A stretch of 6,219 nucleotides of DNA from NCBI GenBank assembly GCA_049973735.1, contig JBMFJL010000033.1:1-6219 (forward strand). The letters are read 5' to 3'. The notes below the pieces were generated by a model, which did no database searches, was not told the origin of the DNA, and was given only the letters and a program-made list of their open reading frames with translations. Every line of letters starts with the position of its first letter. Positions within the stretch are counted from its first letter, which is position 1. The position numbers and the translations under genes are program-made. The stretch is from Nanopusillaceae archaeon. Lineage in GTDB: Archaea > Nanobdellota > Nanobdellia > Nanobdellales > Nanobdellaceae. Below, one piece after another: positions 1,187-6,142 of this stretch.

Positions 1187-1219
1187 TTTAGATAAAGTAT
1201 CTTAATTTTCTATTTTTAT

Positions 1220-1294
1220 TAGCGGGGCCCGGATTTGAACCGGGGACCTGGGGGTTATGAGCCCCCCGGGCACTCCAGGCTGCCCTACCCCGCT
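1220..1294 (-). tRNA. Initiator tRNA-Met (anticodon CAT), no intron, CCA not encoded
   Basis: Reverse complement: AGCGGGG-TA-GGGC-AGCCTGGAGT-GCCC-G-GGGGG-CTCATAA-CCCCC-AGGTC-CCCGG-TTCAAAT-CCGGG-CCCCGCT plus discriminator A. This is a full cloverleaf. The A1:U72 pair and the all-G:C anticodon stem are the archaeal initiator signature. About 72% GC by my count, against the AT-rich background. Confidence 0.9.
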
Positions 1295-1310
1295 ATAATA
1301 ATAAAATATA

Positions 1311-1880: not shown

Positions 1881-2396
1881 ATGAAAGCAGGAAAGAACCC
1901 ACCAGAAGATATATATGTATTCATAGAGATACCAAAGGGAAGCAATATAAAATATGAATATGACGAAGAAGATAAGGTAATAAAAATAGACAGAATTTTG
2001 TATACAGCAATGTTTTATCCATTTAATTACGGATTTATTCCAGAGACTTTAGAAGAGGATGGAGATCCATTGGATGTACTGGTCGTATCCTATGATGTAT
2101 TCCTACCAGGTACAGTTCTTAGAGCAAGACCAATAGGAGTATTAATAACTGAAGATGAAGAGGGGATTGATAGAAAAATAATTGCAGTACCACATGATAA
2201 GATAGATCCAAGATTTTCAAATGTAAAAGATATAAAAGACTTACCAGAATCTATATTGAATCAAATAAAGCATTTCTTCGAACATTATAAAGAATTAGAG
2301 CCAGGAAAGTTTGTAAAGGTAAAAGAATTCAGAAATAAGGAGGAAGCATTTAAAATAGTAAAGGAGGCAGTAGAAAGATATAAAAATAAAAAATAA
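1881..2396 (+). CDS. ppa: Family I soluble inorganic pyrophosphatase
   Basis: The 171-aa product carries the diagnostic motifs [32 protein letters not shown] and DRKIIAVP (Asp/Glu/Lys metal and PPi ligands). Length is typical. Stop TAA at 2394-2396. Confidence 0.95.
2379..2386 (+). promoter_or_regulatory. Putative TATA box driving the C/D sRNA and methyltransferase transcript
   Basis: TATAAAAA lies inside the last codons of ppa. Its centre is about 26-27 nt upstream of G2409, the first base of the C box. Confidence 0.35.
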
Positions 2397-2408
2397 TATT
2401 TTATTTTT
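2397..2408 (+). terminator. T-rich tract after ppa (putative oligo-T terminator)
   Basis: TATTTTATTTTT follows the ppa stop codon directly, with a T5 run at 2404-2408. Confidence 0.3.
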
Positions 2409-2457
2409 GTGATGATGCATTACGCTTCTGAGATATGATGATGTTCGCCGCTGCTGA
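2409..2457 (+). ncRNA. Archaeal C/D box sRNA (dual-guide 2'-O-methylation guide RNA)
   Basis: C box GUGAUGA 2409-2415; 12-nt guide UGCAUUACGCUU 2416-2427; D' box CUGA 2428-2431; 3-nt linker GAU; C' box AUGAUGA 2435-2441; 12-nt guide UGUUCGCCGCUG 2442-2453; D box CUGA 2454-2457. Box order is canonical and both spacers are exactly 12 nt. Local GC is well above background. The true ends may extend a few nt on either side. Confidence 0.8.
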
Positions 2458-3527
2458 TGATCATTAAACAAAGTTTTGAGGAACATTATAAAAAATTATT
2501 AAGAGATAAGTATGAATTATTCTTGGAATGGTCATTTAAAATACTAAAAAAATCTATAAGAATAAATACGATAAAGATAAAAGATGATATTAATTTTGAA
2601 AATTTAAAAGATATTTTGTTAGATAAGCAAGATCATTTAAAAGAAAAAGAATTGAAAGAACTTTCTGAAAAGATAGATAATTTATACCATCTGAAGCAAA
2701 ATCCATTTAGATTAAATATTTCTGCAAAAGAAGTATTATCTAGAATAAAAGAATATGGGTGGGAAATTGAAAGGATACCCTTCTATAAATATGGTTTTTG
2801 GGTTAAGGGAGAAAGAAGAGATATAGGAAATACTGTAGAGTTTCAATTAGGATATTATTATCCACAAGAGGCAGCATCTATGATTCCACCAATAGTATTA
2901 AATCCAAGTAAGGATGATTTAATTTTAGATCTAGCTGCTGCTCCAGGATCAAAGACAACTCAAATTGCTATGCATATGGAAAATGAGGGATTAATTATAG
3001 CTAATGATGTTGATATATATAGGATAAAGGCATTGGGGGAAAATTTACAGAGGCAAGGTGTTTTAAATACAATAATAACAATGATGGACGGCAGAAAGAT
3101 AAATAAATTGAACTTGAAATTTGATAAAATATTGTTAGATGCCCCATGTTCTGGTACTGGTGCTATAAGAAAATCCTATAAGACAGTTCACATGTTTAAT
3201 GAAAACACAATAAAAAGATTAAGTAATTTGCAGAAACAATTAATTTTGTCTGCATTCGATTCTTTGAAAGAAGGTGGTTTGCTTGTATATTCTACATGTT
3301 CTGTAGAACCGCTTGAAAACGAATTTGTAGTAGATTATTTGTTATCTAAAAGGGAAAATGCAGTTGTAGAAAAAGTAGATATACCAAATCTAAAGAAATC
3401 TGAATTAATATTCGAATATGAAAATATGAAAATAGAACATGAAGATGAGATAAAGCATACTATTAGACTATGGCCTTGGGATAATGATACAGAAGGATTT
3501 TATATAGCAGCAATAAGAAAAAAATAA
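2457..3527 (+). CDS. NOL1/NOP2/Sun (RsmB/Trm4-like) SAM-dependent RNA cytosine-C5 methyltransferase
   Basis: SAM motif I DLAAAPGSKTTQ; motif IV DAPCSGTG (catalytic Cys231); motif VI YSTCS (Cys281); the upstream QEAASMIPP block; and an N-terminal ...SIRINTIKI pre-catalytic domain. The ATG at 2457 is supported because homology to the family N-terminus begins within the first 10 residues. The substrate (tRNA or rRNA) cannot be told from sequence alone. Confidence 0.9.
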   Translation: MIIKQSFEEHYKKLLRDKYELFLEWSFKILKKSIRINTIKIKDDINFENLKDILLDKQDHLKEKELKELSEKIDNLYHLKQNPFRLNISAKEVLSRIKEYGWEIERIPFYKYGFWVKGERRDIGNTVEFQLGYYYPQEAASMIPPIVLNPSKDDLILDLAAAPGSKTTQIAMHMENEGLIIANDVDIYRIKALGENLQRQGVLNTIITMMDGRKINKLNLKFDKILLDAPCSGTGAIRKSYKTVHMFNENTIKRLSNLQKQLILSAFDSLKEGGLLVYSTCSVEPLENEFVVDYLLSKRENAVVEKVDIPNLKKSELIFEYENMKIEHEDEIKHTIRLWPWDNDTEGFYIAAIRKK

Positions 3528-3530
3528 AAA

Positions 3531-4511
3531 TTAATATAAAAATCTGTTCATTTCTTTTAGAATCTTGTCAATATTATAACCTTTATTTCTAATTGTTATT
3601 GCAAATCTTTTTATGAATAATAGCAAATTTTCACTATCTTTATTTTCTGAGATATATGTATCAAGTTTTAATATAAATCTTTTATAATAATCTGTATCTT
3701 CATATTCTTGAGAAAAAGTTTCAAATAATGTTCCAATAAATGAGATTACTGTAGAAACGTATCCAGAAAATTCTTTTTCATTGACTTTATCATAATTTTT
3801 ATTATACATGTAAAGAAGATTTTCCATTATATTAATGTAGTAAAATAATAAATGTGGGGCTTTTGTAAGTAAAAACTTTGATATATGATAAAATATAATA
3901 TTTTCTCTTAAATCATAATCGAAATCCGATAAATTATAAATATTTCTTAATCTTTTAATACTATCTTCATCTTCAAATAAATTTTTAATTGTATGATATA
4001 CATTAATTAAATTAATATTGCTCAAATCTTTTTCTTCATATAAAATATCTGTTTTTTGAGTAGATACTGTAATATCTGGAAATATAATTGATCTTAAATT
4101 TCTTATTATAGTGGATAGTATGGCATAGTCTAATCCATCATGTTTAATAAACTCTTTTAGATTTATTCTCAACTGTCTGTTGTATTTTATTATACTATTC
4201 AAATTATCTGGGAGTTGTTTTATTACATTATCATTAAAATTTTCAATGATTGATATATAATTCCTTAAGTCTAAATATGAATAAAACCTTTTAACTATGC
4301 AATCAAACTCTTTTAGATCATCAAATTCTTGAGTACAGTCAAGTTCCATATTTTTTAACAATTCTGTTAAGTTATGGGCAAATACTTTAACTTTATTATT
4401 ATTTATATATTTTTGCAATATTCTAAATCCATCAAAAAATTTTTTATCATTTACATCGAATCTCTCAGCAATATATTTTGCTATATCACCATAATTAGTA
4501 GTATTTATCAT
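3531..4511 (-). CDS. Hypothetical protein, 326 aa, soluble, predicted all-alpha, acidic; no family recognised
   Basis: Long uninterrupted ORF with ATG at 4509-4511 and stop TAA at 3531-3533. Codon and amino-acid composition match the neighbours. No TM segments and no recognisable catalytic motif. A TTTAAA box lies about 26 nt upstream of the ATG. Confidence 0.65.
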   Translation of the reverse strand: MINTTNYGDIAKYIAERFDVNDKKFFDGFRILQKYINNNKVKVFAHNLTELLKNMELDCTQEFDDLKEFDCIVKRFYSYLDLRNYISIIENFNDNVIKQLPDNLNSIIKYNRQLRINLKEFIKHDGLDYAILSTIIRNLRSIIFPDITVSTQKTDILYEEKDLSNINLINVYHTIKNLFEDEDSIKRLRNIYNLSDFDYDLRENIIFYHISKFLLTKAPHLLFYYINIMENLLYMYNKNYDKVNEKEFSGYVSTVISFIGTLFETFSQEYEDTDYYKRFILKLDTYISENKDSENLLLFIKRFAITIRNKGYNIDKILKEMNRFLY

Positions 4512-4546: not shown

Positions 4547-4621
4547 TGCCCCCGCGGGGATTCGAACCCCGGATCTCCAGGACCGAAGCCCGGAATGTTG
4601 TCCTGGCTACACTACGGGGGC
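4547..4621 (-). tRNA. tRNA-Arg (anticodon TCG), no intron, CCA not encoded
   Basis: Reverse complement: GCCCCCG-TA-GTGT-AGCCAGGACA-ACAT-T-CCGGG-CTTCGGT-CCTGG-AGATC-CGGGG-TTCGAAT-CCCCG-CGGGGGC-A. Full cloverleaf with anticodon loop CU-UCG-GU. GC-rich island. Confidence 0.9.
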
Positions 4622-6142
4622 TTTTTTATAGTATATTAATTCCTTATATTTATTGAAATATTCTGCAAAATAATCTTCAAATCGATAGTTAATATTGTAC
4701 TTTTTCGAAATATAATAATACATGTCTATGATCCTCTTAGGATATGAAACATCTGGTAAAGAATTAGATAATTCAATATACTCGAATAAATTTAATATAA
4801 AGTTTTCCCTTCTAATATCATGTTCAATTGTTATCTCTTTATTTTCTACATTATTTATTTCTAAGGTAGATTCAAGTTTACCAAAGTTTAGTGAAGCATA
4901 ATCTTTCGGATTCATGGGATTCATCAAATGATCAGAAAAATATTTATCATATATTATGTTTGGTAAAATCAAACCGAGAGAAATATAAGGATTTATTGTG
5001 GCAGAATACTCAGTTCCTAATGGAATATAAAATGCTATATCTTGAAGATTTAGCGTATTAGCAATATATCTTATATTCTTTCCAAATATTGATAACTCTT
5101 GATAAGCAATTTTTTCAATTAAAAATTTTGCAATATTATAATTAATCTCAGAATCGACATCTTTGAAATCAAATTTGGATTTGCCAAACTCTTTTATTTC
5201 TATTTTTTCTAGGTATAATCCCTCTAAAACTAATCCTAGGATATATCCAATATAAACTGCATCTATACCATATTTATTTACATCATGTAATAGATCTGCT
5301 ATTAATTTTTCATCAAAGATTCCTATGAAAGGTCCTAGCATATTAAAGGGTTCATATGGATAATTACCCTTTAGATTATCTATTAATGGATAAATATAAT
5401 TTTCAAAGAATTTTTTATTTTCTTGTTCTTCAATATATATATTTTTAAAATTTAGAATAGGGAGCTTGTCTAGTGCGAGTTTATATACATCTTTCAAAGA
5501 TTCATGAAAAGGAATTTTATTGTTATCTTCAACAAATATACCTTTGAATTCAATTTTATTATCTCCTCCTATAGATAAACCAGTGATGTTATGATAATTA
5601 TATAGCACCGATCCAATCCCGCCTTTTGTAGCTTTGATCTTATTGTTTTCAAATATTATTAAATTACCATATATGGTATATTTTGATCCCAAACCTGTTA
5701 ATAATATTATAAAATCTTTATTTCCGTAAATATCTTTTAATGTATTATATAAATTCTTTTCTTTATTAAAAATATCTTCTTCTATATTATCTTCTAAAAA
5801 AACTACATTGTCATTTTCTATAATCAAAAAATATTTTTTGTCAGACCTACCTTTAATAATTATCAAATCATTACCAGTCTCTTTTATATATCTTCCAAAT
5901 GATGTTAAATTGATATCCAAAGAGCCTGTAATTGGAGATCTGTAAATTATTAAGGAATTAATTTCAGATTTATTTTTCATATGTCCTACTGAAAAAATTG
6001 TTATATTATTTTCATATGGATTCTTTTCATATGTTTTATATACTTTTTTGTGTATTTCTACAGCATATTCTATTGTTTTTTTATCTATTAATTCATTTTT
6101 TATTAATTTTTTATCTAAGTCTATGTACAAAGTTCTTATCAT
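4607..6142 (-). CDS. Highly divergent aldehyde:ferredoxin oxidoreductase (AOR)-family-like protein lacking all cysteines (probable non-redox homologue)
   Basis: 511-codon ORF, ATG at 6140-6142, stop TAG at 4607-4609. By-eye alignment to approximately remembered Pyrococcus-type AOR blocks: LYIDLDKK ~ IRVNLSTG; YRSPITGS ~ TKSPLTGF; FGRYIKETGNDLIIIKGRSDKKYFLII ~ FGAELKFAGYDAIVVEGKAEKPVYIYI; ATKGGIGSVLYNYHNITGLSIGG ~ AAGRGGVGAVMGSKNLKAIAVEG; YEPFNMLGPFIGIFDEKLIADLLHDVNKYGIDAVYIG ~ PEYESVWALGANLGINDLASIIEANHMCDELGLDTISTG; LIEKIAYQE ~ YIEKIAKRE. The ORF has zero Cys codons. Confidence that it is coding is high. The family assignment is moderate. Confidence 0.7.
   Translation of the reverse strand: MIRTLYIDLDKKLIKNELIDKKTIEYAVEIHKKVYKTYEKNPYENNITIFSVGHMKNKSEINSLIIYRSPITGSLDINLTSFGRYIKETGNDLIIIKGRSDKKYFLIIENDNVVFLEDNIEEDIFNKEKNLYNTLKDIYGNKDFIILLTGLGSKYTIYGNLIIFENNKIKATKGGIGSVLYNYHNITGLSIGGDNKIEFKGIFVEDNNKIPFHESLKDVYKLALDKLPILNFKNIYIEEQENKKFFENYIYPLIDNLKGNYPYEPFNMLGPFIGIFDEKLIADLLHDVNKYGIDAVYIGYILGLVLEGLYLEKIEIKEFGKSKFDFKDVDSEINYNIAKFLIEKIAYQELSIFGKNIRYIANTLNLQDIAFYIPLGTEYSATINPYISLGLILPNIIYDKYFSDHLMNPMNPKDYASLNFGKLESTLEINNVENKEITIEHDIRRENFILNLFEYIELSNSLPDVSYPKRIIDMYYYISKKYNINYRFEDYFAEYFNKYKELIYYKKAPVV

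Follow-up and report, generated by a model that had tools for sequence, protein, structure and literature searches.

The locus described here raises the question of how one stretch of archaeal DNA can serve both as the 3′ end of a guide RNA and as the beginning of a protein gene. The DNA comes from a Nanopusillaceae archaeon, and the window (the whole stretch analysed, 6,219 nucleotides) contains, in this order, ppa, a C/D box sRNA, the hexamer CTGATG, and a gene for a NOL1/NOP2/Sun RNA methyltransferase. The question includes whether the sRNA is genuine, what it guides, where its transcript begins, and whether that transcript is also the mRNA of the methyltransferase. The features discussed below are on the plus strand except where stated.

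A Conserved C/D Box sRNA between ppa and a Methyltransferase Gene

Searches with Pfam and NCBIfam identified an inorganic pyrophosphatase upstream of the sRNA and a NOL1/NOP2/Sun RNA methyltransferase downstream of it. The ppa gene (1881-2396; Pfam PF00719, 207.6 bits) ends with the stop codon TAA at 2394-2396 and is of the leaderless type, with the box TTTAAAAA at -30 to -23 from its ATG. It is followed by the T-rich spacer ATTTTATTTTT (2397-2408), which measures 10 to 14 nt across the orthologues and retains its T run in all of them. This conserved run of T5-T7 after the ppa stop could be an oligo-T terminator of ppa, part of a promoter-proximal region, or both. In archaea, transcription usually terminates at a T run.

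A canonical C/D box sRNA of 49 nt follows at 2409-2457. It consists of the C box GUGAUGA (GTGATGA in DNA; 2409-2415), the 12-nt D′ guide UGCAUUACGCUU (DNA TGCATTACGCTT; 2416-2427), the D′ box CUGA (CTGA; 2428-2431), the 3-nt spacer GAU (GAT; 2432-2434), the C′ box AUGAUGA (ATGATGA; 2435-2441), the 12-nt D guide UGUUCGCCGCUG (DNA TGTTCGCCGCTG; 2442-2453), and the D box CUGA (CTGA; 2454-2457). An RUGAUGA-type C box near the 5′ end, a CUGA D box near the 3′ end, internal D′ and C′ boxes with a short spacer in a symmetric RNA of about 50 nt, and guides of 12 and 12 nt (9-12 nt in orthologues) are all features of archaeal C/D sRNAs. The sequence-only reading, made before the present analysis, had described a textbook archaeal C/D sRNA filling the space between the two genes and had noticed that the last base of the D box, A2457, is the A of the methyltransferase start codon. 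Its coordinates were all correct, and the classification is borne out by the box architecture, by shuffled sequences, and by conservation among orthologues.

A search for the full box architecture gave one occurrence in the window and none in 200 dinucleotide-preserving shuffles. Nine archaeal C/D families of Rfam, plus the eukaryotic SNORD105, match the plus strand at 2397-2474, all below their gathering scores; the best is sR5, with 27.6 bits (E=0.002) against a threshold of 40, so that no curated C/D family, including sR5, snoPyro_CD, sR1, and others, was reached at gathering thresholds. Such scores are expected since the models are guide-specific, and they bear on family identity rather than on membership in the C/D class. 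RNAfold predicted no competing secondary structure for the leader (z=0.02).

Conservation was assessed in aligned orthologous loci from 13 genomes in which synonymous sites are saturated. Despite this saturation, the order ppa, sRNA, CTGATG, methyltransferase is kept in all 13, and CTGATG itself is invariant, as is the D′ box. The UGAUGA of the C′ box is also invariant among the orthologues, and the C box of relatives reads GUGAAGA, GUGAGGA, AUGAUGA, or AUGAAGA, as in N. equitans sRNAs. At a methyltransferase dS of 0.9-1.3, 19-21 of the 22 box positions are identical to the window, which is conservation above the neutral rate. The D′ guide keeps 9-11 of its 12 positions across the orthologues, compared with a third-position identity of about 0.6 in the flanking gene, and the D guide varies between lineages. 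Orthologous sRNAs are 46, 48, 49, and 50 nt long, and this variation excludes coding on either strand. A minus-strand ORF of 63 aa at 2295-2486 was considered as a coding sequence and ruled out, as the orthologous sRNAs differ in length by 1-4 nt. By comparative sequence analysis, positions 2409-2457 are thus confirmed as a real, conserved archaeal C/D box guide RNA.

The Predicted rRNA Target and the Counterpart in N. equitans

The core of the D′ guide, GCAUUACGCU, pairs with helix 70 of 23S rRNA. Retrieval of rRNAs with the guide complement AAGGTAGCGTAATGC would be circular; the target rRNAs were instead Nanopusillus and Nanobdella 23S sequences found through synteny with S19, independently of the guide, and include that of Nanobdella's own genome. 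The window's own guide forms 10 Watson-Crick pairs with this site (UAGCG*UAAUGCC), those of the relatives L001 and YN1 form 11 and 9, respectively, and at least 9 bp to rRNA is the usual requirement for a C/D guide. Shuffled guides gave p of about 0.02 for the match. The N+5 position falls on the G of UAGCG, position 1991 in the 23S rRNA of Nanobdella, and the predicted Gm corresponds roughly to E. coli G1935 in helix 70. Its equivalent in yeast 25S rRNA would be C2278, where Rcm1/NSUN5 acts in helix 70; as the base here is a G, no functional link between the targets of the sRNA and of the methyltransferase is claimed.

For the D guide of the window, with its core UUCGCCG, the picture is different. 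Its best matches in three Nanopusillaceae 16S/23S pairs, taken from relatives of the window organism, have 7-8 Watson-Crick pairs and are no better than 96% of shuffled guides, and no target was found in the tRNAs or related loci searched with up to 2 mismatches allowed. The best site for both the window and L001, at position 672 of the L112 23S rRNA, was rejected: shuffled guides do as well as its 7 Watson-Crick plus 2 G-U pairs, and Nanobdella does not have the site. The D guides of the window and L001 share 8 of 12 positions; with most other orthologues the window has 1-3 positions in common (of 12, or of 9 and 11 for the shorter guides of YN1 and Nanobdella). The D guide of N. acidilobi forms 10 of 10 pairs with its own 23S rRNA at 1874, which would predict an Am at AAAAA*CAUAG.

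The closest relative with expression data is C/D box sRNA9 of N. equitans, for which 19,600 reads were reported (Randau 2012, Genome Biol 13:R63; PMC3491384, Additional file 2). The two RNAs agree in box layout, in the last nine nucleotides of the D′ guide (AUUACGCUU followed by CUGA), and in the nucleotide that they are predicted to target, 23S UAGCGm (position 2028 in N. equitans); a C box of the AUGAAGA/GUGAAGA type is found in sRNA9 and in most Nanopusillaceae copies. Three bases at the 5′ end of the guide differ, matched by a difference in 23S rRNA, a compensatory change in which UAGUCCC faces the guide GGGAUUA in N. equitans and UAAUGCC faces GCAUUA here. On the other hand, sRNA9 differs from the Nanopusillaceae sRNA in having the D box CAGA and an unrelated D guide, and it is a separate unit: TTTTAAAA follows it, and the next ATG, that of NEQ274, lies about 28 nt later, so that NEQ274 has its own promoter. 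A literature search found no description of NEQ274, and N. equitans is absent from the best 120 homologues of the methyltransferase.

These results bear on whether the sRNA is a chance resemblance or a decaying, functionless relic. The Rfam scores under the gathering thresholds and the D guide of the window, for which no target was detected, would fit such a reading. However, the architecture is absent from the shuffles, the boxes and D′ guide have been kept across saturated synonymous divergence, the rRNA target is confirmed in the rRNAs of the lineages themselves, and the N. equitans counterpart is expressed. The conservation pattern alone effectively refutes the reading, and its probability is negligible.

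The Methyltransferase Gene and Its Start Codon

The methyltransferase ORF (2457-3527, ATG at 2457-2459) encodes 356 aa and has the RsmB/F catalytic domain, with 198.9 bits for PF01189 (cut-off 27) and 311.3 bits for TIGR00446 (cut-off 210). The equivalog model NF040814, tRNA (cytosine49-C5) methyltransferase, gave 307 bits, below its cut-off of 550, so that the substrate may be either tRNA or rRNA, and a m5C map of T. kodakarensis offered no usable target assignment for the orthologous methyltransferase class (PMC11344067). The closest solved structures are of the archaeal Trm4/Nop2 type, PH1374 (PDB 1IXK; E 3e-57) and MJ0026 of M. jannaschii (PDB 3A4T; E 1e-52). The window protein shares the RsmB/F catalytic domain and the RsmF_N domain with them and differs in an additional N-terminal region of about 85 aa.

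The start codon is correctly called, because the N-terminus MIIKxSFEEH aligns with homologues that have no sRNA upstream; these keep the protein sequence of residues 3-25, with synonymous changes in the codons. The dN/dS of 0.08-0.12 indicates purifying selection, from which it may be concluded that the methyltransferase is expressed and functional. In two other Nanopusillaceae, L140 and L013, a second, unrelated C/D sRNA divergently adjoins the same methyltransferase gene, which hints that the association is not random.

Promoter Geometry and the Origin of the Transcript

The TATA-like box TATAAAAA (2379-2386) lies inside the last codons of ppa, at -30 to -23 from the C-box G2409, and is the putative promoter of a transcript covering the sRNA and the methyltransferase. 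Its spacing is the same as that at ppa, tRNA-Arg, and other leaderless genes, and 12 of the 13 genomes have a TATA-like box 30-32 nt before the C-box purine, with a weak box, TTTAGTAA, in Nanobdella. Among 55 ORFs from related loci, TATA-like octamers begin at -31 to -28 from the ATG in a sharp peak, in agreement with the earlier observation of a TATA-type box some 24-27 nt before the ATG of most other genes. In evaluating the C-box signal, an A/T octamer has a chance of about 10% per 4-nt window in this genome of 25% G+C, the 13 orthologues are not independent of one another, and the box is within coding sequence. In N. equitans, the first base of sRNAs with their own promoters is the purine at the C box (Randau 2012, PMC3491384). 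G2409 is the likely transcription start on this geometry. A scan for sigma-70 promoters and intrinsic terminators was uninformative and is not relevant for archaea.

The methyltransferase, as previously proposed, has no box of its own: all 13 genomes are without an A/T octamer in the region at -33 to -22 from its ATG, which reads GCTTCTGAGATA in the window. Between the D box and the ORF there is neither a T run nor a promoter, and no upstream ORF abuts the gene. When 67 ORF starts from 8 loci were compared, those with neither a -30 A/T box nor an abutting upstream ORF were five methyltransferase copies and two probably spurious TTG ORFs. An anti-SD is missing from the 16S rRNA of this family, as has also been published for N. 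acidilobi. Collectively, the promoter geometry at the C box, a methyltransferase without box or abutting ORF, and the missing anti-SD make a shared transcript the best model. The sequence-only reading had proposed one transcript starting at the C box with the sRNA as its 48-nt leader. The geometry and the box-less methyltransferase favor this proposal; the single transcript itself is something we infer, and transcripts entering from ppa may compete with it as a source.

Under polycistronic read-through of this kind, the sRNA and the methyltransferase mRNA would both come mainly from the ppa transcript, with the sRNA cut from the intercistronic region and the box being Lys/Asn-rich coding sequence only. 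Most archaeal C/D sRNAs have no promoters of their own and are excised from longer transcripts (PMC7994747), ppa has a clear promoter, the T-rich spacer may fail to stop ppa transcripts, and an A/T octamer in coding sequence is a common occurrence in this genome at the rate given above. However, the distance from box to C box stays at 30-32 nt in 12 of 13 genomes while the spacer from the ppa stop to the C box ranges from 10 to 14 nt, and the T5-T7 run after the ppa stop is conserved. Furthermore, the ppa stop is 60 nt from the methyltransferase ATG, which makes translational coupling of the two genes unlikely. Read-through as the main source is unlikely.

Alternatively, the two genes could be independent, overlapping units, with a leaderless methyltransferase mRNA starting at A2457 from an unconventional promoter in the D′ box, spacer, and C′ box, so that the sRNA would never be a leader. 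Where leaderless mRNAs are the norm and no anti-SD is present, a 5′-terminal AUG is the simplest start for a conserved ORF, and many orthologues have an A-rich spacer between D′ and C′, such as CTGAAAAATGA. Against this, the octamer missing from the -33 to -22 region in 13 of 13 genomes is present at all other promoter-bearing genes, and the sequence of that region is dictated by the box consensus. Independent units are less likely still than read-through.

The shared transcript would place the AUG 48 nt from the 5′ end. How ribosomes would find it there is puzzling in a lineage that is overwhelmingly leaderless and has no anti-SD. One conceivable route is a leaderless mini-ORF, in which ribosomes would load at the GUG or AUG of the C box, translate 8-9 codons until they reach the UGA in the C′ box, terminate there, and re-initiate 15-20 nt downstream, with loading competing with the RNP for the 5′ end. 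Leaderless initiation and stop/start coupling both exist in the lineage, and a frame of 8-9 codons is open from the C-box purine to the C′ box in 12 of 13 orthologues, ending 15-20 nt before the ATG. But this frame arises automatically from the 7+12+4+3-nt geometry of C/D sRNAs and occurs in unrelated N. equitans sRNAs too, and because the geometry is generic, the frame is no evidence of selection. In addition, the frame is broken in N. acidilobi (L002) by a 4-nt spacer, and a precedent was not found in the literature. This route is very unlikely.

Two Possible Fates of the Proposed Shared Transcript

The C- and D-box strands, with tandem G.A at the initiation region, fit a k-turn at the level of sequence only. 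In the canonical C/D k-turn, the GA of the D box pairs with the GA of the C box. Because D box and AUG overlap by one base, the start-codon A would be the very D-box A that pairs in the k-turn.

The account that we prefer can be set out as follows. First, the sRNA is the guide-level counterpart of N. equitans sRNA9, and its D′ guide would direct 2′-O-methylation of a G in 23S helix 70. Second, a rearrangement in one Nanopusillaceae clade would have put the methyltransferase gene directly behind the sRNA, creating CUGAUG with one A common to both. Third, transcription would begin at the C-box purine, or 1 nt before it, from the box in the 3′ end of ppa and run into the methyltransferase ORF. 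This transcript would then have two fates. L7Ae, Nop5, and fibrillarin could assemble on the C/D and C′/D′ motifs, followed by trimming to an sRNA of about 50 nt in which the AUG is occluded or destroyed; alternatively, the free transcript could be translated in an SD-independent manner. Mutually exclusive sRNA and mRNA fates would follow from the geometry, and a competition between RNP assembly and translation is what we infer from it. We assign this full account, comprising a functional sRNA with a helix 70 guide, fusion by rearrangement, a shared transcript, and two fates, a probability of about 55%.

A stronger claim would be that the one-base fusion of D box and AUG is a selected binary switch, so that only transcripts on which no C/D RNP assembles would yield the methyltransferase. 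Ribosomes might in that case load on the 5′-terminal GUG or AUG of the C box and then re-initiate. We consider such a switch unlikely, slightly more so than read-through. The autoregulation suggested earlier has no support, as the methyltransferase is not a known component of C/D RNPs.

Relation to Known Overlaps and Their Regulation

The methyltransferase start codon lies within an sRNA gene on the same strand, which places the locus in the 5′-overlapping sense class. According to the account of Tripp 2017 given by Breuer et al. 2021 (PMC7994747), sense C/D sRNA genes over an ORF 5′ end account for 7% of genes in six archaea and cause a strong fall in the expression of a downstream reporter. 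Lui et al. 2018 (PMC6009581) suggested explicitly that a sense sRNA that has not been excised could, when bound by L7Ae/Nop5/fibrillarin, block translation initiation, and repression by L7Ae through a k-turn in the 5′ UTR was shown experimentally by Daume et al. 2017 (mBio; PMC5539422). N. equitans sRNAs overlapping genes of RNA-modification enzymes had also been noted (Randau 2012, PMC3491384). The suggestion that burial of a start codon by an sRNA RNP would be new here was thus mistaken, since the overlap class, the reduced expression, and the occlusion by L7Ae or the RNP had already been published.

With the published class (PMC7994747, PMC6009581), the locus shares a same-strand sRNA containing the start codon and an ORF without a separate promoter. 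An orphan guide beside the ORF is typical of that class, as is seen in the D guide of the window, for which no target was detected. Unlike the class, the overlap here is a single base, which leaves the guide free of coding constraint; several genera retain the fusion, with strong purifying selection acting on the ORF; and the host lineage has no anti-SD, nearly all of its other genes being leaderless or coupled. The locus is an unusually clean, long-conserved example of an overlap type already known.

The locus can also be compared with the l7ae system of Daume et al. In both cases a k-turn that L7Ae could in principle bind is placed beside the translation start. However, the k-turn of the Daume system stands by itself, covers an SD, and controls l7ae, whereas the putative k-turn of the window belongs to a complete guide RNA, has no SD to mask, and precedes the gene of an unrelated RNA methyltransferase.

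On its own, the locus gives the Nanopusillaceae an annotated sRNA, together with a Gm predicted in 23S helix 70. It is also a compact test bed for three questions that earlier papers have posed: how C/D sRNAs are cut from mRNAs, whether L7Ae or RNP assembly controls translation in vivo, and how ribosomes without an anti-SD translate non-leaderless mRNAs. It is present in two cultivable co-cultures, N. acidilobi with Acidilobus (CP010514.1, about 381,288-381,337 on the plus strand) and Nanobdella aerobiophila with Metallosphaera (NZ_AP019769.1, about 419,777-419,730 on the minus strand). If the switch were true, the free pool of L7Ae, Nop5, and fibrillarin would set the level of the m5C methyltransferase and coordinate two kinds of RNA methylation. 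If the shared transcript is true, these archaea would provide a stable natural case in which one primary RNA becomes either a guide RNP or the mRNA for another RNA-modifying enzyme.

The box C/D sRNA and its overlap with the methyltransferase gene

A box C/D sRNA gene occupies 2409-2457 on the forward strand, between the inorganic pyrophosphatase gene ppa (1881-2396, with its stop codon TAA at 2394-2396) and a methyltransferase gene. It consists of a C box (GTGATGA, 2409-2415), a 12-nt D' guide (TGCATTACGCTT, 2416-2427), a D' box (CTGA, 2428-2431) followed by the spacer GAT, a C' box (ATGATGA, 2435-2441), a 12-nt D guide (TGTTCGCCGCTG, 2442-2453) and a D box (CTGA, 2454-2457). The box layout and coordinates proposed by the sequence-only reading match the sequence, as does its claim that the last D-box base, A2457, is also the A of the methyltransferase start codon (ATG, 2457-2459), the first codon of a 356-aa ORF that runs to 3527. 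The window contains the complete box architecture just once, and none of 200 dinucleotide-preserving shuffles reproduces it. Nine archaeal C/D families of Rfam (and the eukaryotic SNORD105) match the strand and span of the sRNA, all below threshold, the top match being sR5 (27.6 bits, E = 0.002; gathering score 40). In addition, CUGAUGAU at 2455-2460 (D box plus first codons) is a perfect C-box core, UGAUGA, lying across the D box and start codon; the core is present in all fused orthologues except that of Nanobdella (CUGAUGGA), and may be a coincidence or a vestige of the fusion's origin.

By its orthologous loci, the window belongs to Nanopusillaceae (Nanobdellota). The gene order ppa, sRNA, methyltransferase is kept in 13 genomes (the window, MAG KM4331-08, N. 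acidilobi, several Nanopusillus and Nanobsidianus MAGs, strain YN1 and Nanobdella aerobiophila), with CTGATG invariant in them. Between the window and relatives, at a methyltransferase dS of 0.9-1.3, the four boxes are identical at 19-21 of 22 positions and the D' guide at 9-11 of 12, while in the D guide just 1-3 positions agree (8/12 with KM4331-08, the sole exception). The sRNA measures 46, 48, 49 or 50 nt in the orthologues, a variation that rules out protein coding on either strand.

By Pfam and NCBIfam, the flanking genes encode inorganic pyrophosphatase and a NOL1/NOP2/Sun RNA m5C methyltransferase. The latter is predicted to modify tRNA or rRNA; its nearest solved structures are PH1374 (1IXK) and M. 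jannaschii MJ0026. Its dN/dS of 0.08-0.12 at the above dS (third-position identity about 0.6) indicates a working gene rather than a decaying one. Elsewhere in the window (about 25% G+C; tRNAs 67-71%), long reverse-strand ORFs at 341-1156 (271 aa) and 3531-4511 (326 aa) gave no Pfam or NCBIfam match, and the DNA holding the first has a G+C content of just 13-18% and shows a strong spike in local GC skew at about 800-1000. A 511-aa reverse-strand ORF (4607-6142) weakly matches aldehyde:ferredoxin oxidoreductase domains (AFOR_N 46 bits; AFOR_C below cut-off; GAPOR equivalog 54 bits versus 1300) and adjoins the methyltransferase gene in several lineages, in either orientation.

Target searches for the two guides

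For N. equitans, the supplement of Randau 2012 (PMC3491384) lists sRNA9 with 19,600 reads and a predicted target, 23S Gm2028 in UAGCGmUAGUCCC. The D' guide of sRNA9 (GGGATTACGCTT followed by CTGA) has its 3' nine nucleotides in common with that of the window. One rRNA contig, L112, was fetched with the inferred target 15-mer, which is circular, and its S19 protein then confirmed it as 'Candidatus Nanopusillus sp.'; the rRNAs of an N. acidilobi-lineage MAG (L145) and Nanobdella aerobiophila (L146) were fetched by S19 synteny, the guide playing no part. UAGCGUAAUGCC is present in helix 70 of all three 23S genes. The D' guides form 10 Watson-Crick pairs with this site (11 in KM4331-08, 9 in YN1), and the N+5 position falls on the G of UAGCG. 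Their variable positions are exactly the two flanking the paired core, and there is a compensatory change between N. equitans (target UAGUCCC, guide GGGAUUA) and the genomes here (target UAAUGCC, guide GCAUUA). The site is position 1928 in the E. coli strain retrieved, which we take to correspond to about G1935 by the m5U1939 landmark, and falls within helices 68-71, an archaeal 2'-O-methylation hotspot. Against about 4.4 kb of rRNA, p for a lone 10-bp match is about 0.01-0.02, so the argument draws its weight from three lines taken together: the pattern of conservation, the covariation and the precedent in N. equitans. We judge the sRNA to be real and functional.

The D guide of N. acidilobi (AACTATGTTTTT) pairs at 10/10 positions with the 23S of that lineage (position 1874), some 130 nt away from the D' site. 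No convincing target was found for the window's D guide among Nanopusillaceae 16S/23S and the retrieved tRNAs and loci, nor for the Nanobdella D guide or those of most Nanopusillus genomes, which are A/U-only (AAAAAUAUUUUU), perhaps through decay or because selection keeps the stretch ahead of the AUG unstructured. Orphan guides beside the overlapping ORF are described as typical of 5'-overlapping sRNAs by Lui et al. (2018, PMC6009581). Across the window (2442-2453) and loci L001-L014, the D guide has been swapped repeatedly among lineages, with at least five unrelated versions, and the D' guide is fixed.

Promoters and translation initiation

Among 55 ORFs of related loci, the starts of TATA-like octamers peak sharply between -31 and -28 relative to the ATG, so leaderless mRNAs are the rule there. 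The promoter observations of the sequence-only reading (boxes before other genes, none before the methyltransferase, one before the C box) hold. Boxes lie at -30 to -23 for ppa (TTTAAAAA) and tRNA-Arg (AAATATAA, counted from the first mature base), and TATAAAAA (2379-2386) occupies the identical position relative to G2409. Of the 13 orthologues, 12 have a box 30-32 nt ahead of the C-box purine and Nanobdella has only TTTAGTAA; by chance, a 4-nt window would contain one in about 10% of cases. Read-through from ppa might also supply the transcript, which we hold to be unlikely. None of the 13 has a box similarly placed before the methyltransferase ATG. A cryptic leaderless start at A2457 would conform to the local rule and would have to do so lacking that box, which leaves it quite improbable. 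Neither a T run nor a promoter was found between the D box and the ORF.

Among 67 ORF starts in eight loci, 38 have a -30 box, 8 are coupled to an upstream stop and 21 have neither. The last comprise 11 with near-miss A/T boxes, three Alba genes coupled to a short S17e ORF, two TTG ORFs (probably spurious) and five methyltransferase copies, making the methyltransferase the one gene consistently outside both routes. The 16S rRNA genes of Nanopusillaceae end in GGAUCUAGUUAA, not GGAUCACCUCCU (L112, 10290-11783, reverse strand; L145, 4458-5952; L146, 6739-8227), and no CCUCC follows within 80 nt of these ends. The anti-Shine-Dalgarno is therefore absent, in Nanobdella aerobiophila too; an earlier publication reports its loss in N. 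acidilobi (PMC10783764, Table 4). Leader secondary structure is not significant (z = 0.02). Ribosomes might load on the 5'-terminal GUG/AUG of the C box, read an 8-9-codon frame that stops in the C' box and re-initiate 15-20 nt downstream; however, this frame is generic C/D geometry rather than evidence of selection, and we give the route very little credence.

The box of tRNA-Arg(TCG) (4547-4621, reverse strand; upstream region 4622-4660) suggests leaderless transcription of this gene, about 15 nt of which lie within the 3' end of the AFOR-like ORF. N. equitans is free of RNase P, and its tRNA transcription is leaderless. Unlike tRNA-Arg, tRNA-Met(CAT) (1219-1295, reverse strand) has no TATA-like box at about -30. 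It shares its strand with the Alba gene and follows it by 48 nt, so it may belong to one transcript with the S17e-Alba operon. In Nanopusillus and Nanobdella (L112, L145, L146), 16S and 23S are not linked and lie on opposite strands, separated by about 6-7.5 kb, with a conserved block of TGT, S19 and type IV pilus/archaellum-like T2SSE/T2SSF genes between them.

Relation to published systems and proposed mechanism

Sense overlap of C/D sRNAs with ORF 5' ends is a described class (7% of genes, six archaea), and a 5'-overlapping sRNA markedly lowered downstream reporter expression (Tripp 2017, as reported in PMC7994747). Lui et al. (2018, PMC6009581) explicitly raised the possibility that an unexcised sense sRNA bound by L7Ae, Nop5 and fibrillarin could hinder initiation, Daume et al. 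(2017, PMC5539422) demonstrated L7Ae repression via a 5'-UTR k-turn, and Randau (2012, PMC3491384) noted N. equitans sRNAs overlapping RNA-modification enzyme genes. The conceptual novelty claimed for the locus had thus been anticipated by these four studies, and the proposed autoregulation is without basis. The literature searched yielded no description of Nanopusillus or Nanobdella C/D sRNAs. Compared to the known class, the locus is peculiar in its single-base overlap, conserved across genera, in a lineage lacking the anti-Shine-Dalgarno, at the only gene seen with neither leaderless promoter nor coupling.

A shared transcript is the best-supported hypothesis, and we assign a probability of about 0.55 to a four-step model. 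First, transcription would start at or beside the C-box purine, driven by the box in the 3' end of ppa. Second, the transcript would continue into the methyltransferase ORF. Third, C/D RNP assembly and trimming would yield the sRNA, with the AUG sequestered or removed, because the D-box A, here also the A of the AUG, forms a sheared G.A pair in the C/D k-turn. Fourth, transcripts left unbound would be translated by a Shine-Dalgarno-independent route.

Evolutionary setting

The fusion is limited to one clade. In L139 (a close relative, 79% identity), L141, L142, L012 and L015, a Hef-like helicase gene overlaps the methyltransferase start and there is no sRNA; in L143, the methyltransferase gene is preceded by a TATA box of its own. 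L140 and L013, from two other Nanopusillaceae lineages, have a C/D sRNA of another family, divergently oriented, about 27 nt upstream of the methyltransferase gene (2425-2473 and 3886-3933, respectively, reverse strand; guides GTTACCCATC and TGCCGAGTT), and the two genes appear to have a common bidirectional TATA region. The best matches of this sRNA are L112 23S positions 2119 and 1778. Unlike the fused locus, N. equitans sRNA9 is followed by the neighbouring gene's own TATA box. From the restriction to one clade, the other contexts in relatives and the separate promoter after sRNA9, we infer that the fusion is a derived rearrangement that has been stably maintained since.
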